Under the pieces are notes generated by a model. The model did no database searches and was not told the DNA's origin. It was given only the letters and a program-made list of their open reading frames with translations. A program made the translations under genes and the position numbers. Shown here piece after piece: positions 9,158 to 57,378 of a DNA stretch of 58,371 nucleotides. The stretch lies in assembly GCA_043808015.1 (NCBI GenBank), contig JAZDFI010000030.1:1-58371 (forward strand). The letters run 5' to 3'. Source of the DNA: Candidatus Aenigmatarchaeota archaeon. Its GTDB lineage: Archaea > Aenigmatarchaeota > Aenigmatarchaeia > QMZP01 > QMZT01. Within the stretch, counting starts at the first letter, position 1, and each line of letters opens with the position of its first letter.

Positions 9158-9997
9158 TTAAACGAATAAAAATATAAGATCTCCCCAGAATACCGTTATG
9201 ACTATGGTGATTACGAATACGGGGGCGAATCTCACGCCTTCCTTTATCCACACGTGCTTGCTTCGCTTCCTGAGCGCGGCTATATCTTTCTTGCTCAGGC
9301 CTTTCCATCTTCCGTCGAGCGCGACATCGCCTTCCCTGAGCTCTGAAGTCCTGACTTTTTTCTTGAAAAGGTGCTTCTCGACGACTTTTGCGTAGTATGA
9401 GAACAACAAAACGAAAGTGAGCAGGAACGGCAGGAAGACGAATTGGTTCATGCTGACCGGATTCGTGACTGAAGGCAGTGTTGTCATGAAGAAGGCGAAG
9501 GACCAGGAGAACGCGAAGAAAAATGCCACCATCGCTATCAGCTTTATCTTCTGTTCCTTCAGATGCTGCAGGTATTTGCTGTTCACGGATGTGTGCCTCA
9601 GGCCCAGGTAAACGGAGTATGCTATAAGATATACAAGCGAGACCAGCAGGAAGTTGAAAAGCATCGCTAACGGGAAGGGGAGCGCGGTCGTGACGCCGAA
9701 TTCCAGTTGTTCTGGTAAAAGAAAGCCCATTGCACCGAGCAGCCAGGCATCGCCGTCGCCCCATTGCCTGGCGAAATACATCAAAAGGCCTATTCCCAGG
9801 AATGCGAGGCCTATGAATATCGAGCTGGCCAGTATCATCCAGTCCCCCGTGATGAAAGAGAACACACCTCTCGCACCCAGAGACAATATTATTATAGAAT
9901 ATGGCAGCCAGTCCGGGAATTCCGTCGTCTTTATATCCCAGTAGGCGCCCAGGCCGAAGCCGATGATGCCTATGGCCAGAAGTATTACACTCAACAT
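9158..9997 (-). CDS. prepilin/preflagellin peptidase (A24, PibD/FlaK-like)
   Basis: AYWDIKTTEFPD and WGDGDAWL aspartate motifs; C-terminal VWIKEGVRFAPVF; multi-TM. Confidence 0.85.
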   Translation of the reverse strand: MLSVILLAIGIIGFGLGAYWDIKTTEFPDWLPYSIIILSLGARGVFSFITGDWMILASSIFIGLAFLGIGLLMYFARQWGDGDAWLLGAMGFLLPEQLEFGVTTALPFPLAMLFNFLLVSLVYLIAYSVYLGLRHTSVNSKYLQHLKEQKIKLIAMVAFFFAFSWSFAFFMTTLPSVTNPVSMNQFVFLPFLLTFVLLFSYYAKVVEKHLFKKKVRTSELREGDVALDGRWKGLSKKDIAALRKRSKHVWIKEGVRFAPVFVITIVITVFWGDLIFLFV

Positions 9998-10000
9998 ATA

Positions 10001-10112
10001 TGGGGTCGCTGAGATTCGAACTCAGGTCGCAGGCTCCCGAAGCCTGAATGCTAGACCACTGCAGAGCCCTTTTCACGTTTTTCTGGAAAGGGCTTAGCTA
10101 CACCACGACCCC
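10001..10112 (-). tRNA. tRNA-Pro(CGG) with a 37-nt D-loop intron (10059-10095, position 17/17a)
   Basis: Acceptor GGGGTCG/CGACCCC, anticodon arm CAGGC-TTCGGGA-GCCTG, T arm CTGAG-TTCGAAT-CTCAG. Splice motif: GTAG/CTGC helix with CT|A and AG|T bulges, giving a 75-nt mature tRNA. Confidence 0.93.
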
Positions 10113-10255
10113 GTATTTGACGAATGACGCAGGCTACGCCTGCGCCTGTGTGCCAGGCCGACGCAAGCGCCGGCCTGCCTTTGACGTGCTGATAGATAGT
10201 ATTATTGAAATTATAATATTAAAAATAAAAGGGAAGAAAAGGCTTTTTATTGTTT

Positions 10256-12442
10256 TTAAGCCGCGTCCGTTATGCCCTTTCTCTGCTTTATCTGGCCTAT
10301 GACTCTCGGCTCGAGCTCCCTGGGCATCGGTTCGTAGATGATGTCTATTAGCCAGTAGAAGCCTTTGCCGCCAGTCGATGACTTGAGGGCGGAGTTGAAG
10401 CCGAACATATCTGCGACGGGAAGCTTTGCGGTAATCGTCGTCGTGCCGCGCTCCTCGCTCATCTCTAGTATTTGCCCGCGGCGGTTCTGGACTTCTTTCA
10501 TGGCCCCGCTCATCTGCTCCGAAGGGACGTCTATCCTTATCACCTGCTTGGGTTCAAGTATGAAAGCCTTCGCGGCGACCATCGAATCCCTTACAGCCGC
10601 ACGGACAGCTGGTATGACCTGCGCCGGGCCCCTGTGTATGGCGTCCTCGTGAAGCTTCGCGTCGACAATCTTTATCTTCACAGCGTCGCACGGCTCTTTC
10701 GCCAGCGGGCCCTCGTCCATCGCTTCCACAAATGATTCTTTAAGCATTTCCATGATTTCAAGGATCGAGTGAACTCCTCGCGTCGCGTCCACGAACATGT
10801 TCCTGTTATGTATGAGCTTGACCTTCTTCGCTTCGTCGCGGTCCAGACCGAGGTTTATGAGCTTTTCCACAACCTCGACATCCTTTTTCTTGAACTCAAA
10901 CGTCGATGGTACATCGCCTCTCACCATGGCCTCGTGTATCTTCGGGTCGAGCGGCTCTGCCACGAGATAGAATCTGTTGTGCTTGTTGGGCGACTTGCCT
11001 TCGATCGCCTCAGGGCTCGTGCTCCTCACGGATTCCCTGTAGATCACGATTGGAGGCGAAACGTCGACTTCTATTTCAGCTTCCTTTAGCGGGCGCTCTA
11101 TCTTCGCGTCGATGTGCAGCTCACCCAATCCCGAAACGAGATACTCTCCAGTCTCCTCGTTAATCTTGACTCTGAGCGTCGGATCTTCTTTGGCGACGCG
11201 CCTCAGGAAATCGATGAGCTTTGTCAGTTGCTGCGGCTTCTTGGGTTCTATCGCCTTGACCACAACCGGCTCGAATATGTGCGATATCGACTCGAAACCC
11301 GGTATGGGATTTTCAGGGTCGCAGATGGTTTCGCCGGAGAACGAGTCCTTAAGACCAACGATTCCGACGATGTTGCCTGCATCGACCTCATCCATGCTTA
11401 TCCTCTGCGCTCCCTTGTAAACGGAAACCTGCTGTACCTTCTGCGATTTGGCCATGCCGACCAGATAGACTTCCTGGCCGACCTTCATCTTGCCCGAGAA
11501 TATCCTGACCGTCGCGACGTAACCTGCATGCGGGTCAGGGTAGAGTTTCGTGACAATCGCCGCCAGTTTGCCGTTGGGGTTGCAGCTTGCCATGTCCTTC
11601 CCCACTTCAGAATCCTTCTCGCCCGGCCATATCCTCGGTATCCTGTACTTCTGCGCGTTGAGCGGGTTTGGTAAATGCGTGATTATCATATCAAGGACAA
11701 CGCCGTGCAGCGGCGCTAGTTTCGCCAGCTCTTTCTCGCCTTCAGCACCCCTTTCGGTGAAGTCTATTATGTCCTTGAACGTCATTTTCGACGTCATCAT
11801 GAATGGGACGGAAATCGCCCAGTTCTTGACGGCCGAGCCGAATGCGACGCTCCCGTCGTTTACGCTGATAATGCACCTCTCAGCGAATTCTTTCTCAGCG
11901 TATTTCTGGATGAGAGCATTGACGTCAGTGATTATTTTTTTGAACCTATCCTGCATCTGCTCTGGCGTGAGTTTCAATTCTTTTATCAGCCTGTCGACCT
12001 TGTTGACGAAAAGAACCGGTTTTACGCGCTCTTTTAGCGCTTGTCGTATTACGGTCTCGGTCTGCGGCATGACAGCTTCGACTGCGTCGATAAGCACGAT
12101 TACGCCGTCTACCGCGCGCATCGCTCTCGTCACGTCGCCGCCGAAGTCCACGTGACCTGGCGTGTCAATAAGGTTGATGAGGTAGTCCTCGCCGTGGAAA
12201 TCGTGAATCATGCTCGCGTTCGCGGCGAATATAGTGATGCCACGCTCCTGCTCCTGCGCGTCGAAGTCCATCGCCAGCTGCTTGCCTGCAAGTTCCTGCG
12301 ATATCATGCCGGCGCCTGCGAGCAGGTTGTCTGAGAACGTCGTCTTGCCGTGGTCTATGTGGGCGACGATGCCTATGTTGCGGATTTTTTCCGGCTTAAG
12401 CATAAGGTCCCTGATTGTTGAAGTCACATCTTTTGTTGCCAT
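10256..12442 (-). CDS. fusA: translation elongation factor aEF-2
   Basis: AHIDHGKTT, RGITI, DTPGHVDF, NKVD; diphthamide loop LHEDAIHRGPAQVIP. Confidence 0.98.
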   Translation of the reverse strand: MATKDVTSTIRDLMLKPEKIRNIGIVAHIDHGKTTFSDNLLAGAGMISQELAGKQLAMDFDAQEQERGITIFAANASMIHDFHGEDYLINLIDTPGHVDFGGDVTRAMRAVDGVIVLIDAVEAVMPQTETVIRQALKERVKPVLFVNKVDRLIKELKLTPEQMQDRFKKIITDVNALIQKYAEKEFAERCIISVNDGSVAFGSAVKNWAISVPFMMTSKMTFKDIIDFTERGAEGEKELAKLAPLHGVVLDMIITHLPNPLNAQKYRIPRIWPGEKDSEVGKDMASCNPNGKLAAIVTKLYPDPHAGYVATVRIFSGKMKVGQEVYLVGMAKSQKVQQVSVYKGAQRISMDEVDAGNIVGIVGLKDSFSGETICDPENPIPGFESISHIFEPVVVKAIEPKKPQQLTKLIDFLRRVAKEDPTLRVKINEETGEYLVSGLGELHIDAKIERPLKEAEIEVDVSPPIVIYRESVRSTSPEAIEGKSPNKHNRFYLVAEPLDPKIHEAMVRGDVPSTFEFKKKDVEVVEKLINLGLDRDEAKKVKLIHNRNMFVDATRGVHSILEIMEMLKESFVEAMDEGPLAKEPCDAVKIKIVDAKLHEDAIHRGPAQVIPAVRAAVRDSMVAAKAFILEPKQVIRIDVPSEQMSGAMKEVQNRRGQILEMSEERGTTTITAKLPVADMFGFNSALKSSTGGKGFYWLIDIIYEPMPRELEPRVIGQIKQRKGITDAA

Positions 12443-21663: not shown

Positions 21664-21749
21664 AAAGCGTCTCTTATTTTATTATTATCCTATATATACG
21701 GTCAATGTAATGACACTTATTTATGTTAAACTAATTTAAATATATATAG

Positions 21750-21785
21750 TAAGCTCTTTTCAGGAAAGAGCTTAAGCAGAAAGGA
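21750..21785. repeat. palindromic intergenic repeat (REP-like), copy A
   Basis: TAAGCTCTTT-TCAGG-AAAGAGCTTA 10-bp stem followed by AGCAGAAA; similar hairpins at 52863-52995 and inside tRNA introns. Confidence 0.55.
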
Positions 21786-21883
21786 GCATCGCTCCACTGC
21801 GTTTCGCTCGCTTCCTGTTGTCCAAAATCCGTCTTAAAGGCGGTGTTGGCAAAATGGTTTAAGGAAGCCGATATATAAACCTT

Positions 21884-34398: not shown

Positions 34399-34510
34399 GC
34401 CTCGGTGGCTCAGTGGTAATTTCGAAGGAAGCAGGTTTTACCTGCTTCAGTCGCTAAAGAGCGTTCGCTTGGTAAGCGAAAGGTCGCGAGTTCAATTCTC
34501 GCCCGGGGCT
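34399..34510 (+). tRNA. tRNA-Thr(GGT) with a 40-nt D-loop intron (34418-34457, position 20/21)
   Basis: Acceptor GCCTCGG/CCGGGGC, anticodon arm TTCGC-TTGGTAA-GCGAA. Strict BHB: GCTC/GAGC outer helix, AGTG/CGCT central helix, GT|A and AA|A bulges, restoring GCTCAGTGGTAGAGC. Confidence 0.93.
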
Positions 34511-52122: not shown

Positions 52123-52668
52123 ATGAAGTTTCTCAAAATGCGCTCCAAAGAAGTAAAGGAGCTGCAGCCCGAAACCCAGGAAAGCGCTAGCGAAGAGAAC
52201 ATCCAAGCCCCCGAGCGAGCAGAAGATGATAATTACGGTCCGCCATCAAAGCTGCCTGAGATAAAGAGGGCGCTTCCAAGACCGGCGCCGAGGGTCGCTT
52301 CATCCGGTTCGCCGCCGCTTTTCATAAAAGTCGACAAGTACAGGGAGATCGTCAAGGGCATACGCGAACTCAGATCTTACATTCTCAACCTCAAGGACAC
52401 GCTGGACGTCCTCAGCGATATGCAGCGCGAAGTCGGGAACGGCGTCCAGATAGCGCACAAATCACTCGACGAACTCAATTCGCTGGTTTCCGACCTTGAC
52501 TCTTTCTTCATGAAGCCGCAGACCATGAGCGGCGGCAGGGCGCAGGAATACGACGCTGACGACATAGAGGAAGAAGCGGACACGCACGCGAACGAAATAC
52601 GCAGTTCCATGAAAGACGTCTATGGCCAGCTGGAGAAATTGCGCTCCCAGCTCAGGTCCATACAGTAA
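52123..52668 (+). CDS. hypothetical coiled-coil protein
   Basis: Disordered N-terminus, PLFIKVDKY motif, heptad-rich helices. Confidence 0.7.
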   Translation: MKFLKMRSKEVKELQPETQESASEENIQAPERAEDDNYGPPSKLPEIKRALPRPAPRVASSGSPPLFIKVDKYREIVKGIRELRSYILNLKDTLDVLSDMQREVGNGVQIAHKSLDELNSLVSDLDSFFMKPQTMSGGRAQEYDADDIEEEADTHANEIRSSMKDVYGQLEKLRSQLRSIQ

Positions 52669-52702
52669 TTTAAATAAATAGCTCCACTTCTAAATTCTAT
52701 AT

Positions 52703-52861
52703 GCGGGGGTAGCCAAGCGGTTAAAGGCGATAGAACGGTCTTGAACTCTGATTCAAGATGATGTCGACGCTCAAGACCTATTCACTTAGAGTGCCTTTCG
52801 CGGACAGGAACCGCGAAGAACGCGAGGAGTGTGTTCCAGGGTTCGAATCCCTGCCCCCGCA
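52703..52861 (+). tRNA. tRNA-Leu(CAA) with two introns: 30/31 (52734-52768) and variable arm (about 52790-52829)
   Basis: Acceptor GCGGGGG/CCCCCGC; T arm CAGGG-TTCGAAT-CCCTG. CGAT/GTCG helix with AG|A and AC|G bulges restores ATAGG-CTCAAGA-CCTAT. The second excision restores variable arm TCACTTAGTGTGTTC; about 84 nt mature. Confidence 0.88.
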
Positions 52862-52862
52862 T

Positions 52863-52995
52863 TAAAGCTTTTTAGAAAAAAGCTTTAGCAAAAAACGGGA
52901 CTTAGAAAAAGGCTTTAGCGAAAAACGGCGAACTGTTTTACGAAAGTCGGTTTTCCGCGGGCGCTTTTTTCAAAAGAGCCCCTTTTCACGTTTTT
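52863..52995. repeat. cluster of palindromic REP-like repeats downstream of tRNA-Leu
   Basis: 11-bp stem TAAAGCTTTTT-AGA-AAAAAGCTTTA; 27-nt direct repeat at 52872 and 52902 (2 mismatches); degenerate inverted copy at about 52951-52980. Confidence 0.7.
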
Positions 52996-53019
52996 AAAGC
53001 GGTTTTTCAACTTTAAAAC

Positions 53020-53271
53020 ATGAGCGACAAGAAGCTCGTGGGAAAGGTAAGGCATTACTTCAGCAACATAAGCGTCGCGGTCATCGACCTGAGCTCGACG
53101 CTCAAGGTCGGCGACGAAATATCGATAGAAGGCTCTTCTACGAACGTTACGCAGAAAGTCGATTCAATGCAGATCGAGCACAAGAACGTCGAGGAAGCGA
53201 AGAAGGGGCAGTCCATCGGTATGAAGGTCGCGGACAGGGTGAGGGAAGGCGACGTCGTATTCAGGATGTAG
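53020..53271 (+). CDS. small beta-barrel protein (translation-factor domain II / U32 C-terminal-like)
   Basis: VGKV.HYF.NISVA, LKVGD.I.I.G, Q.V.SMQI, VREGD.V. Confidence 0.75.
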   Translation: MSDKKLVGKVRHYFSNISVAVIDLSSTLKVGDEISIEGSSTNVTQKVDSMQIEHKNVEEAKKGQSIGMKVADRVREGDVVFRM

Positions 53272-57195: not shown

Positions 57196-57215
57196 TTAAT
57201 CCTGATAATTAAATA

Positions 57216-57365
57216 CGCCGGGACTGGGATTCGAACCCAGGACCCCGTAAGGAGACTAGCTGTCTGGGAAAATCTCAAAACGCAAACACGGAGTTTCGTT
57301 TTTTCGATAAAGCCTTTTTTCAAAAGGCTTTCCAGGCTAGCGCGTTACCGTTCCGCCATCCCGGC
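57216..57365 (-). tRNA. tRNA-Ser(GGA) with a 68-nt canonical 37/38 intron (57262-57329)
   Basis: GCCGGGA/TCCCGGC acceptor, G73, long variable arm; CTGG/CCAG helix with AA|A and AC|A bulges; 82 nt mature. Confidence 0.93.
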
Positions 57366-57378
57366 GTGATATTATATT

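Follow-up and report, generated by a model that had tools for sequence, protein, structure and literature searches.

A D-loop intron in an aenigmatarchaeal tRNA-Pro(CGG) gene as a probable decayed member of a hairpin repeat family shared with tRNA trailers and spacers

The 37-nucleotide (nt) segment at positions 10059–10095 of contig JAZDFI010000030.1 (58,371 nt, the whole stretch analyzed and referred to below as the window) of a Candidatus Aenigmatarchaeota archaeon interrupts the D-loop of a gene for tRNA-Pro(CGG). It is probably best read as a spliced intron that is a decayed member of a family of hairpins common to tRNA introns, tRNA trailers and intergenic spacers and copied as DNA, an interpretation that we hold with reasonable but not high confidence. 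The host is a DPANN archaeon. Its genome (G000) comprises 934 kb in 39 contigs, of which the window is contig C30, and is 90.7% complete. It was compared with four genomes of the same genus (G001–G004) and with more distant relatives, among them G007, of another genus in the same family, and G008, of genus g5. How introns arrive in archaeal tRNA genes is an open question, which a single genus here makes testable by comparative genomics and small-RNA sequencing. The related genomes have the same module in introns, in trailers and in free DNA, together with one apparently recent intron gain that has a donor-like copy in its own trailer, and the shared module is a concrete lead on how tRNA introns are gained.

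The gene is divided into the following parts.

10001–10112, minus strand: tRNA-Pro(CGG) gene, 112 nt including the intron, with no encoded CCA (Rfam tRNA match to the 3' part, ARAGORN after intron removal, orthologs).
10096–10112, minus strand: 5' exon, tRNA nucleotides 1–17, GGGGTCGTGGTGTAGCT (junction set by the intronless G007 ortholog and by ARAGORN on the spliced sequence).
10059–10095, minus strand: D-loop intron, 37 nt, AAGCCCTTTCCAGAAAAACGTGAAAAGGGCTCTGCAG (folds, ARAGORN call on the spliced sequence, ortholog alignment).
10001–10058, minus strand: 3' exon, which starts TGGTCTAGCAT in the RNA sense (Rfam match, ARAGORN on the spliced sequence).

The anticodon loop reads TTCGGGA. The unspliced gene is not called by ARAGORN and is matched by Rfam only in its 3' part. 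When 10059–10095 is deleted in a script, ARAGORN calls a tRNA-Pro(cgg) of 75 nt. The G007 ortholog, which has no intron, reads GTGTAGCTTGGTCTAGCAT, identical to the predicted splice product of the G000 gene. Because the call after removal and the intronless ortholog both match this product, the intron is defined to the base, and its limits are exactly those given in a preliminary description of this DNA. The segment thereby has the properties expected of a genuine protein-spliced tRNA intron, and its removal in vivo is predicted from these comparisons. ARAGORN run without its intron mode recovered two of the five tRNA genes of the window, and standard tRNA finders overlook many of the tRNA genes in G000.

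Minimum-energy folds of the segment formed by the D-arm and the intron were obtained for the five orthologs of the genus and for that of G008. Four of the five (G000, G001, G002 and G003) have a common fold with a UGUAG/CUGCA helix, a CUA bulge and a long helix made by the ends of the intron. The parts of this splice motif in the window are as follows.

10098–10101, minus strand: exon strand GUAG of the central helix of 4 base pairs (bp), pairing with CUGC at 10061–10064 (folds of G000, G001, G002 and G003).
10061–10064, minus strand: intron strand CUGC of the central helix, followed by the 3' splice site A, G / U at 10060, 10059 and 10058 (folds).
10095–10097, minus strand: 3-nt bulge C U / A of the 5' splice site (folds; cut position deduced from the splice product).
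10087–10094, minus strand: 5' arm of the intron-side helix, AGCCCUUU, which is the 5' arm of the family hairpin (folds, ortholog alignment).
10065–10072, minus strand: 3' arm of the intron-side helix, AAAGGGCU (folds, ortholog alignment).

The fold of G004 deviates from the common architecture although its sequence is nearly identical to that of G002, which has the helix, and the architecture was not seen in the fold of the G008 ortholog. The intron 3' end CTGCA(A/G) is kept in all six intron-bearing orthologs, and where the 5' arm has changed from C to U, in G001 and G003, pairing is kept as G-U. The canonical spacing of 4 bp puts the cuts at CU/A and AG/U, which yields the observed product. 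A strict bulge-helix-bulge motif is not present: AG/U stands at the right spacing after the 4-bp helix, but no exon-side helix is formed beyond a possible U-G pair. Because there is no exon-side helix beside the 3' cut, the modeled motif is assigned to the relaxed bulge-helix-bulge class, of the HBh' kind as named in the accessible text of PMC3488258. The proposal in the preliminary description that the hairpin arms form the intron-side helix is thus borne out in four of the five folds of the genus. Its further proposal, that the insert is neutralized by bulge-helix-bulge splicing, agrees with the restored product and with the motif at the 5' site and has to be amended in that the motif is relaxed rather than strict and the splicing is predicted. 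G000 has one gene for the splicing endonuclease (EndA, PF01974), whose product of 395 amino acids matches Protein Data Bank entry 4FZ2 over its full length (expectation value, E, 2e-105). Entry 4FZ2 is the three-unit ε2 enzyme of ARMAN-2, for which the accessible text of PMC3488258 reports cleavage of both strict and relaxed motifs. The G000 gene is predicted to encode an ε2-type endonuclease able to cut relaxed motifs.

The hairpin of the intron has counterparts throughout G000. An nhmmer profile search of three iterations at E < 0.05 gave 27 matches, which merge to 20 distinct loci, and a covariance model (R1) built from the family unit was used for the relatives and for scoring single loci. 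The unit comprises a 10-bp hairpin, (T)AAGCyyTTTT-loop-AAAArrGCTT, and a tail, AAGC/TAGC-(A/G)AAAA(CG), often followed by a further GGAG...CGyTTCGC block. The 20 loci fall into three groups: (i) six are in tRNA introns, (ii) seven are in the trailers of five tRNAs and (iii) seven are in other DNA outside open reading frames (ORFs). On a rough longest-ORF map of the genome none of the 20 lies inside an ORF. Thirteen are in tRNA territory, defined as tRNA spans plus 80-nt trailers, which makes up 7.7% of the non-ORF DNA (binomial P, 1.5e-10). In the trailers the first unit begins 1–3 nt after the discriminator base, and five of the seven other intergenic copies lie within 45 nt of a stop codon, on either strand, with two copies (on C35 and C38) overlapping TAA. 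The unit starts the introns of at least eight tRNA genes (six at E < 0.05, Ala(UGC) on C16 at E 0.38 and Pro(CGG) by orthology), and these introns are located in the D-loop (Pro, C12, C16), the anticodon loop (Ser-GGA, C8, C9) and the T-loop (C29, C18). Wherever the junction can be placed, the intronic hairpin begins 0–3 nt after the 5' exon. In tRNA-Arg(CCU) (C29:51371–51478) a single complete hairpin-plus-tail unit makes up the 33-nt T-loop intron; its hairpin folds as the intron-side helix and its tail, through CGAA, pairs with UUCG of the T-loop as the central helix, so that both splice helices are built by the unit alone. Apart from the Pro intron, the window contains the following members and associated features.

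21748–21815, plus strand: composite free-standing element made up of hairpin, tail and a GGAGC...CGCTTCC block, designated locus A, with a conserved TTTAAATATATA box immediately upstream (R1, 38.3 bits).
52703–52861, plus strand: intron-bearing tRNA, probably Leu(CAA) (Rfam tRNA, 37.9 bits).
52862–52931, plus strand: 3' trailer of this tRNA with two family units, 52862–52901 and 52906–52931 (R1, 51.1 and 20.2 bits; nhmmer).
52945–52984, minus strand: weak family unit with hairpin and GCGGAAAACCG tail, present in G000 and G003 only of the five genus genomes (R1 with filters off, 18.9 bits, E 0.096).
57294–57333, minus strand: family unit opening the anticodon-loop intron of tRNA-Ser(GGA) at its 5' end, in the gene at 57215–57366 (R1, 44.4 bits).

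The connection between the Pro intron and these copies is made through its orthologs. Within G000, the hairpin at 21750–21775 and that of the Pro intron have 10 of 12 and 11 of 12 letters alike in their two arms, a resemblance already recorded in the preliminary description for the hairpin at 21751. The Pro intron of G003, 85 nt long and beginning AAGCTCTTTTCAAGAAAGAGCTTAAGCAGAAAGGAGC, matches window positions 21750–21815 over 66 nt at 84.8% identity (E 9e-13), which places the two in the same repeat family, and the Pro(CGG) trailer of G003 matches 21750–21782 at 93.9%. Further matches of the G003 intron stretch in G000 are found on C39, C32 and C15 and in the trailers of tRNA-Pro(UGG) (C28) and of the tRNA at 52703–52861. 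Identical aligned columns number 76 of 84 between the G003 and G001 introns and 63 of 77 between the G003 intron and locus A. These alignments indicate that the likeness between intron and locus A is true homology and not an effect of composition. The G000 intron is assigned to the family because it is orthologous to full copies in G001 and G003, and it appears to be a shortened, decayed member of a repeat family that extends through the genus.

Comparison of the tRNA-Pro alleles among relatives, as the preliminary description had suggested, showed the D-loop intron to vary within the genus from 37 nt (G000) through 65 nt (G002, G004) and 85 nt (G003) to 127 nt (G001); G008 has an unrelated intron of 30 nt and G007 has none. 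The ends of the genus introns are conserved (AAGCCyTTT ... GGCTCTGCAR) and their interior is rich in insertions and deletions, too much so for an ancestral form to be told from the five orthologs. Orthologous sites elsewhere are similarly variable. Locus A has no element in G004, only the hairpin and tail in G001, the composite element in G000 and G003 and a double one in G002. At locus B, the spacer between the tRNA at 52703–52861 and the ATG at 53020, 40 nt separate tRNA and ATG in G001 and G002, and about 158 nt, full of units, in G000 and G003. The Pro(CGG) trailer carries the element only in G001 and G003 among the five genus genomes. Across the genus, the element shows turnover at orthologous sites. 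The covariance model has matches at E ≤ 0.01 in 36 of the 41 genomes searched, G000 included, with 21 in G000, 7 in G001, 12 in G002, 18 in G003 and 6 in G004; in G003, 8 of 18 matches (E ≤ 0.001) are inside or abut a tRNA.

Two further differences were seen around locus B. A stretch of about 40 nt in the tRNA at 52703–52861 (GAGTGCC...GCGAGGA, before the T-arm) is missing in the G001 ortholog and represents a further intron polymorphism, and at the same tRNA G003 is longer by about 640 bases and contains the tRNA 3' end a second time.

The clearest case of intron gain is in G001, in which alone tRNA-Pro(CGG) has a second intron, located in the T-loop. Over its first 31 nt, ATAAGCTTTTTACCCAAAAAGCTTAAGCAAA, this intron repeats the beginning of the same gene's trailer without a mismatch, and intron and trailer also share AAAACCAGGAGC, which in the trailer comes after an extra block. 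In the fold the T-stem is followed by a 3-nt bulge, a helix of UUCGA with UCGGA, a second bulge and the element hairpin. Because the T-loop is uninterrupted in the other four genus genomes and in the G007 and G008 orthologs, the intron is by parsimony a gain in G001. The D-loop intron of G001 adds a second hairpin, GACGCAGGT-TTC-ACCTGCGTC-GTTCG. A comparable identity exists in G000, where the intron of tRNA-Tyr (C9:57553–57700) holds a 28-nt exact copy, GACGCATGCGCAGCATGCGTCATTCGCT, of positions −34 to −7 of the gene's own leader.

Another repeat occurs in the leaders themselves and consists of the 9-bp hairpin GACGCAnnn-loop-nnnTGCGTC with WTTCG after it. It is present in the window at 10121–10146, in the leader of the minus-strand tRNA-Pro gene, and on contigs C6, C7, C8, C9, C22 and C29 of G000. 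Its core, TGCGTCnTTCG, ends 5–8 nt before seven tRNA genes (Pro-CGG, Tyr, Val-GAC, Gly-CCC, the spacer Ala, Gln-UUG and one Ile/Met-like), and the hairpin also occurs within the tRNA-Tyr intron. Candidate roles are a leader structure, an RNase P signal or a promoter. The tRNA-Ala gene in the 16S-23S spacer (C8:61255–61560) combines several of these features, with introns in both D-loop and T-loop, the leader motif at 8 nt upstream of the gene and a trailer formed by a family unit; its leader GCGTCTTTCGT and trailer ACGAAAGCGC look complementary by eye. A processing stem formed by leader TTTCGCT and trailer tail AGCGAAA was considered and given up: it fits the spacer tRNA-Ala by eye, but trailers with the module mostly have no such leader motif. 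Cutting of the trailers by the endonuclease at a helix-bulge-helix formed by acceptor stem and hairpin was also rejected because the cut would produce a wrong 3' end.

The principal competitor of the interpretation given here dispenses with a mobile element. The module would then be a structured sequence typical of tRNA and gene 3' ends in this lineage, the second hairpin, GACGCAnnn-loop-nnnTGCGTC-WTTCG, would be the corresponding leader sequence, and local partial duplication of a tRNA gene would place trailer and sometimes leader sequence between two gene halves, as in a fused split tRNA. Such an origin would account for the location of 12 of the 14 non-intronic copies at a gene end (the seven in tRNA trailers and the five close to stop codons), for the fact that intronic copies that can be placed abut the 5' exon as trailer copies abut the tRNA end, and for the identities of the G001 T-loop intron with its own trailer (31 nt) and of the G000 Tyr intron with its own leader (28 nt). 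It is also consistent with the G001 D-loop intron, in which the element precedes a leader-type hairpin in trailer-then-leader order, with the leader motif 5–8 nt before seven tRNA 5' ends and with the lack of any transposase found in G000. The costs are that each intron needs a duplication and two deletions, that locus A is polymorphic and in a promoter or 5'-untranslated position rather than at a gene end, and that the module is found at only about 14 of roughly 1000 gene ends and is therefore no general 3'-end signal. The 5' part of the Tyr intron is, moreover, unlike the trailer of that gene. Runs of T4–T5 tend to stop archaeal transcription; the intron copies retain such runs, which would tend to halt transcription if the module were a terminator. 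On these grounds we regard capture of flanking sequence without a mobile element as unlikely.

If the Pro intron is instead a member of a hairpin family copied as DNA, its maintenance can be outlined as follows. Exon GUAG would pair with intron CUGC, the CU/A bulge would take the 5' cut and the intron ends would form the intron-side helix, so that a hairpin placed directly after the 5' exon would offer the endonuclease a ready-made helix and only about 4 nt complementary to the exon end would be needed besides. Copies may persist in tRNA genes because the hairpin and these 4 nt or so make them spliceable by an endonuclease of broad specificity. The family would spread, or be exchanged, by copying at the level of DNA, at least sometimes from nearby copies. 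Possible routes are template switching or ectopic recombination at hairpins, and partial duplication of a tRNA gene that traps trailer and leader. Since G008 has an intron at the same site without the element, the intron may predate the element, which could have entered, or been exchanged into, an older D-loop intron. A stronger version, which we entertain only tentatively and think somewhat less probable than not, makes the non-autonomous hairpin-plus-tail repeat an active source of new tRNA introns. Its copies, often taken from the gene's own trailer at a distance of a few dozen bases, would be spliceable at once by the ε2 endonuclease, with the GCGAAA tail, or a few added bases, pairing with the exon end and, in the T-loop, with the universal UUCG. 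If true, archaeal tRNA genes would have a concrete route of intron gain at the DNA level, in progress in the T-loop intron of G001. The preliminary description held that the D-loop intron arose by insertion of a palindromic repeat. The existence of the family, its turnover and the clear gain in the G001 T-loop speak for such insertions; the origin of this particular D-loop intron does not follow from them, as G008 has an intron at the same site without the element. No mobilizing enzyme was found in G000.

Conservation of the unit raises the question whether selection rather than copying maintains it. In the aligned copies 92% of the stem is paired, and stem cells with changes on both sides number 20, as against 7.3 ± 2.7 in column shuffles, none of 500 of which reaches 20. 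These compensatory changes and the conserved tail would be expected of an RNA or protein-binding module under selection for the binding of a factor or for pre-tRNA processing that also works within introns. The retention of the locus A element in four of the five genus genomes, with flanks only about 74% identical, is in keeping with such a function, as is the Arg(CCU) T-loop intron, one whole unit whose tail CGAA pairs with UUCG. Its presence nonetheless varies at every orthologous site examined, and the G000 Pro intron does without most of the unit and still keeps the splice helices. An Rfam search of 701 nt around 52500–53200 (locus B) at a loose threshold brought only tRNA to the gathering score, with IMES-5 and others far below. 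A functional module is for these reasons considered very unlikely as the explanation of the family.

The similarity that first drew attention to the intron is of another kind. It consists of a 16-mer, which together with its partner has the following locations.

10067–10082, plus strand: copy 1, CCCTTTTCACGTTTTT (in the RNA sense AAAAACGTGAAAAGGG), with a family-type tail and then an arm (exact string search).
52980–52995, plus strand: copy 2, overlapping the start of the weak minus-strand unit and the B recognition element/TATA region of the gene starting at 53020 (exact match).

The recurrence reported in the preliminary description is exact, and it can be prolonged 5' over AGAGC if an additional C is allowed for at the 52980 site, giving 20 matched letters and one gap, again as reported. 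Elsewhere in the genome the intron has no better match, and the runner-up is a 13-mer. Exact genome matches of at least 16 nt are, however, obtained for 38 of 2000 dinucleotide-shuffled introns and for 272 of 3000 random real intergenic 37-mers, 130 of which are full-length repeats; the gapped score of the pair, 18, is reached in 2 of 400 shuffles. By itself the 16-mer is weak evidence of anything beyond chance, and the weight first given to it is not sustained by these controls. The 130 intergenic 37-mers with a full-length exact copy elsewhere also show that G000 holds longer exact intergenic repeats.

The partner site had been described as free intergenic DNA. It is non-coding, but it ends 25 nt upstream of the ATG at 53020, overlaps the conserved TTTTTAAAG box of that gene and lies about 115 nt downstream of the intron-bearing tRNA 52703–52861. 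The right half of the 16-mer, CACGTTTTT(AAAG), is the box before the 53020 gene, which is kept in all five genus genomes; G004 reads CACGCTTTTAAAC there, without the rest of the 16-mer region. The 16-mer is not conserved as a pair, because locus B of G003 reads GGGCCCTTTTCGCGTTTTT whereas its intron has AGAGCCCTTTTCACTTGG. DNA contigs from near-identical environmental strains have the same short intron with differences within 10070–10082, namely two T>C changes, a 2-nt deletion and a 1-nt insertion. In structure, the 16-mer is a family tail, AAAAACG, followed by the arm AAAAGGGCTCT, a type of junction also seen in tandem trailer units. There are 10 occurrences of the pattern AAAACG-N(1–5)-AAAAGG, as compared with an average of 1.7 and a maximum of 7 in 20 block shuffles. 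Both partners appear to be decayed family members, and the 16-mer would then be a junction of the kind in which a tail is followed by the next arm of tandem units, sharpened by chance, and the two sites would not stand in a direct relation of donor and recipient. A third junction of this kind, AAAACG-CAG-AAAAGGGGCTCTG, is found at C25:5068–5100 and is close to the AAAACG-TG-AAAAGGGCTCTG of the intron and to locus B.

These controls bear on the view that the D-loop intron is ancient and has its hairpin only because a splice helix is needed, with the A/T-rich likeness and the 16-mer as effects of composition. Besides the frequency with which 16-nt matches arise, this view can draw on the loss of the pair in G003 and its variation among near strains, on the identity of the 16-mer part CACGTTTTTAAAG with a promoter box that G004 has without the insert, on the unrelated hairpin of the G008 intron at the same site and on the low score of the G000 intron with the family model. 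It leaves without explanation the AAGC-GAAAA tail, which the splice motif does not require and which is yet common to intron, trailer and free copies, and it conflicts with the 66-nt homology of the G003 intron and locus A, with the exact intron-flank identities of 31 and 28 nt and with the enrichment in tRNA territory. For the hairpin family convergence is already largely refuted, whereas for the 16-mer alone it is a fair reading; as an account of the intron it is highly improbable.

Several observations weigh against the derivation of the intron from a family copied as DNA. They concern, first, the models and maps: the family model is short and A/T-rich, it gives the G000 Pro intron only 10.4 bits (R1, E 5.4), in the hairpin part and on the opposite strand, and the crude longest-ORF calling limits the count of copies within ORFs. 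The stem has 10 G-U and 5 A-C cells, figures that do not separate an RNA hairpin from a DNA palindrome. The 30-nt intron of G008 at the same tRNA-Pro site has an unrelated hairpin and no element. Outside the genus (G024, G028, G040 and G013) the model matches are mostly not beside tRNA matches and may be generic hairpins. The G001 Pro gene contains a stretch of N flanked on either side by repeated sequence, so its assembly is imperfect. No clear target-site duplication was seen at the family insertion sites; ATATATA stands on both sides of locus A but is of low complexity, and the TCGAA and TCGGAA around the G001 T-loop intron are also required by the splice helix. Y1 transposase (PF01797), reverse transcriptase (PF00078), TnpB (PF07282) and DDE_Tnp_1 (PF01609) were not found in the 90.7%-complete G000, and classical transposition and retro-insertion are unsupported because such enzymes were not found. 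Finally, the single RNA run examined (run shares ≤0.16) gave no RNA contig on window positions 9600–10500.

Two observations concern other tRNA genes. Genes of 67 nt for tRNA-Thr (GGU and CGU), at 34444–34510 of the window and at C28:46202–46268, are aligned by Rfam with a very short D-arm and with mismatches in the acceptor stem. G013, a genome of the same family that is 90% complete, has one Rfam tRNA match at E ≤ 0.01 as compared with 11–32 in each of seven other relatives (17–32 within the genus), and its tRNA genes may be more interrupted or unassembled.

Related intron sequences in different tRNAs have a precedent in the Thermoproteales, in which intron families are common to several isotypes (Fujishima et al. 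2010, as described in the accessible text of PMC4090602); that review, of 2014, gives the transposition mechanism of archaeal tRNA introns as unknown. A later measurement puts the cross-isotype families of the Thermoproteales at 28.3% of 272 intervening sequences and reports no general path for the arrival of introns in Asgard archaea, according to the available portion of 10.64898/2026.10.13.758758. The present case resembles the Thermoproteales in that gain is thought to occur at the DNA level and in that related intron sequence is found in at least two isotypes and in the D-, anticodon and T-loops. It differs in that the host belongs to the DPANN archaea, that the shared sequence is a module of about 40 nt within introns and not a whole intron, that 14 of 20 loci are outside introns (seven trailers and seven other intergenic sites) and that the likely donor copies are in the flanks of the same gene, as the 31-nt and 28-nt identities suggest. 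ARMAN-2 (Ca. Micrarchaeum acidiphilum; PMC3239211, PMC3488258 and 4FZ2, as far as their accessible parts go) is likewise an ultrasmall archaeon with a single EndA of three-unit length, D-loop and T-loop (59/60) introns and relaxed motifs. The accessible text of the two papers describes no intron module shared with trailers or intergenic DNA, and the enzyme of G000 is known from its sequence. The split tRNAs of Nanoarchaeum equitans, as presented in the same parts of PMC4090602, are similar in that trailer-like sequence after the 5' tRNA piece forms the splice motif; here, by contrast, a single gene holds the pieces side by side, with no sign of separate transcription. A full-text search of the literature, supplements excepted, brought up no account, for DPANN archaea, of an intron module that trailers also carry.

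The REP (repetitive extragenic palindromic), BIME (bacterial interspersed mosaic element) and MITE (miniature inverted-repeat transposable element) repeats of bacteria are short, dispersed, imperfect palindromes in non-coding DNA, often after stop codons, that are present in one relative and absent from another. The family described here resembles them in its dispersed copies with a conserved palindrome and in its filled and empty alleles at locus A, at locus B, in the Pro trailer and in the G001 T-loop. It differs from them in the lack of a cognate transposase and of a clear target duplication, in its strong linkage to tRNA genes and in that copies within genes would be tolerated because they are spliced out.

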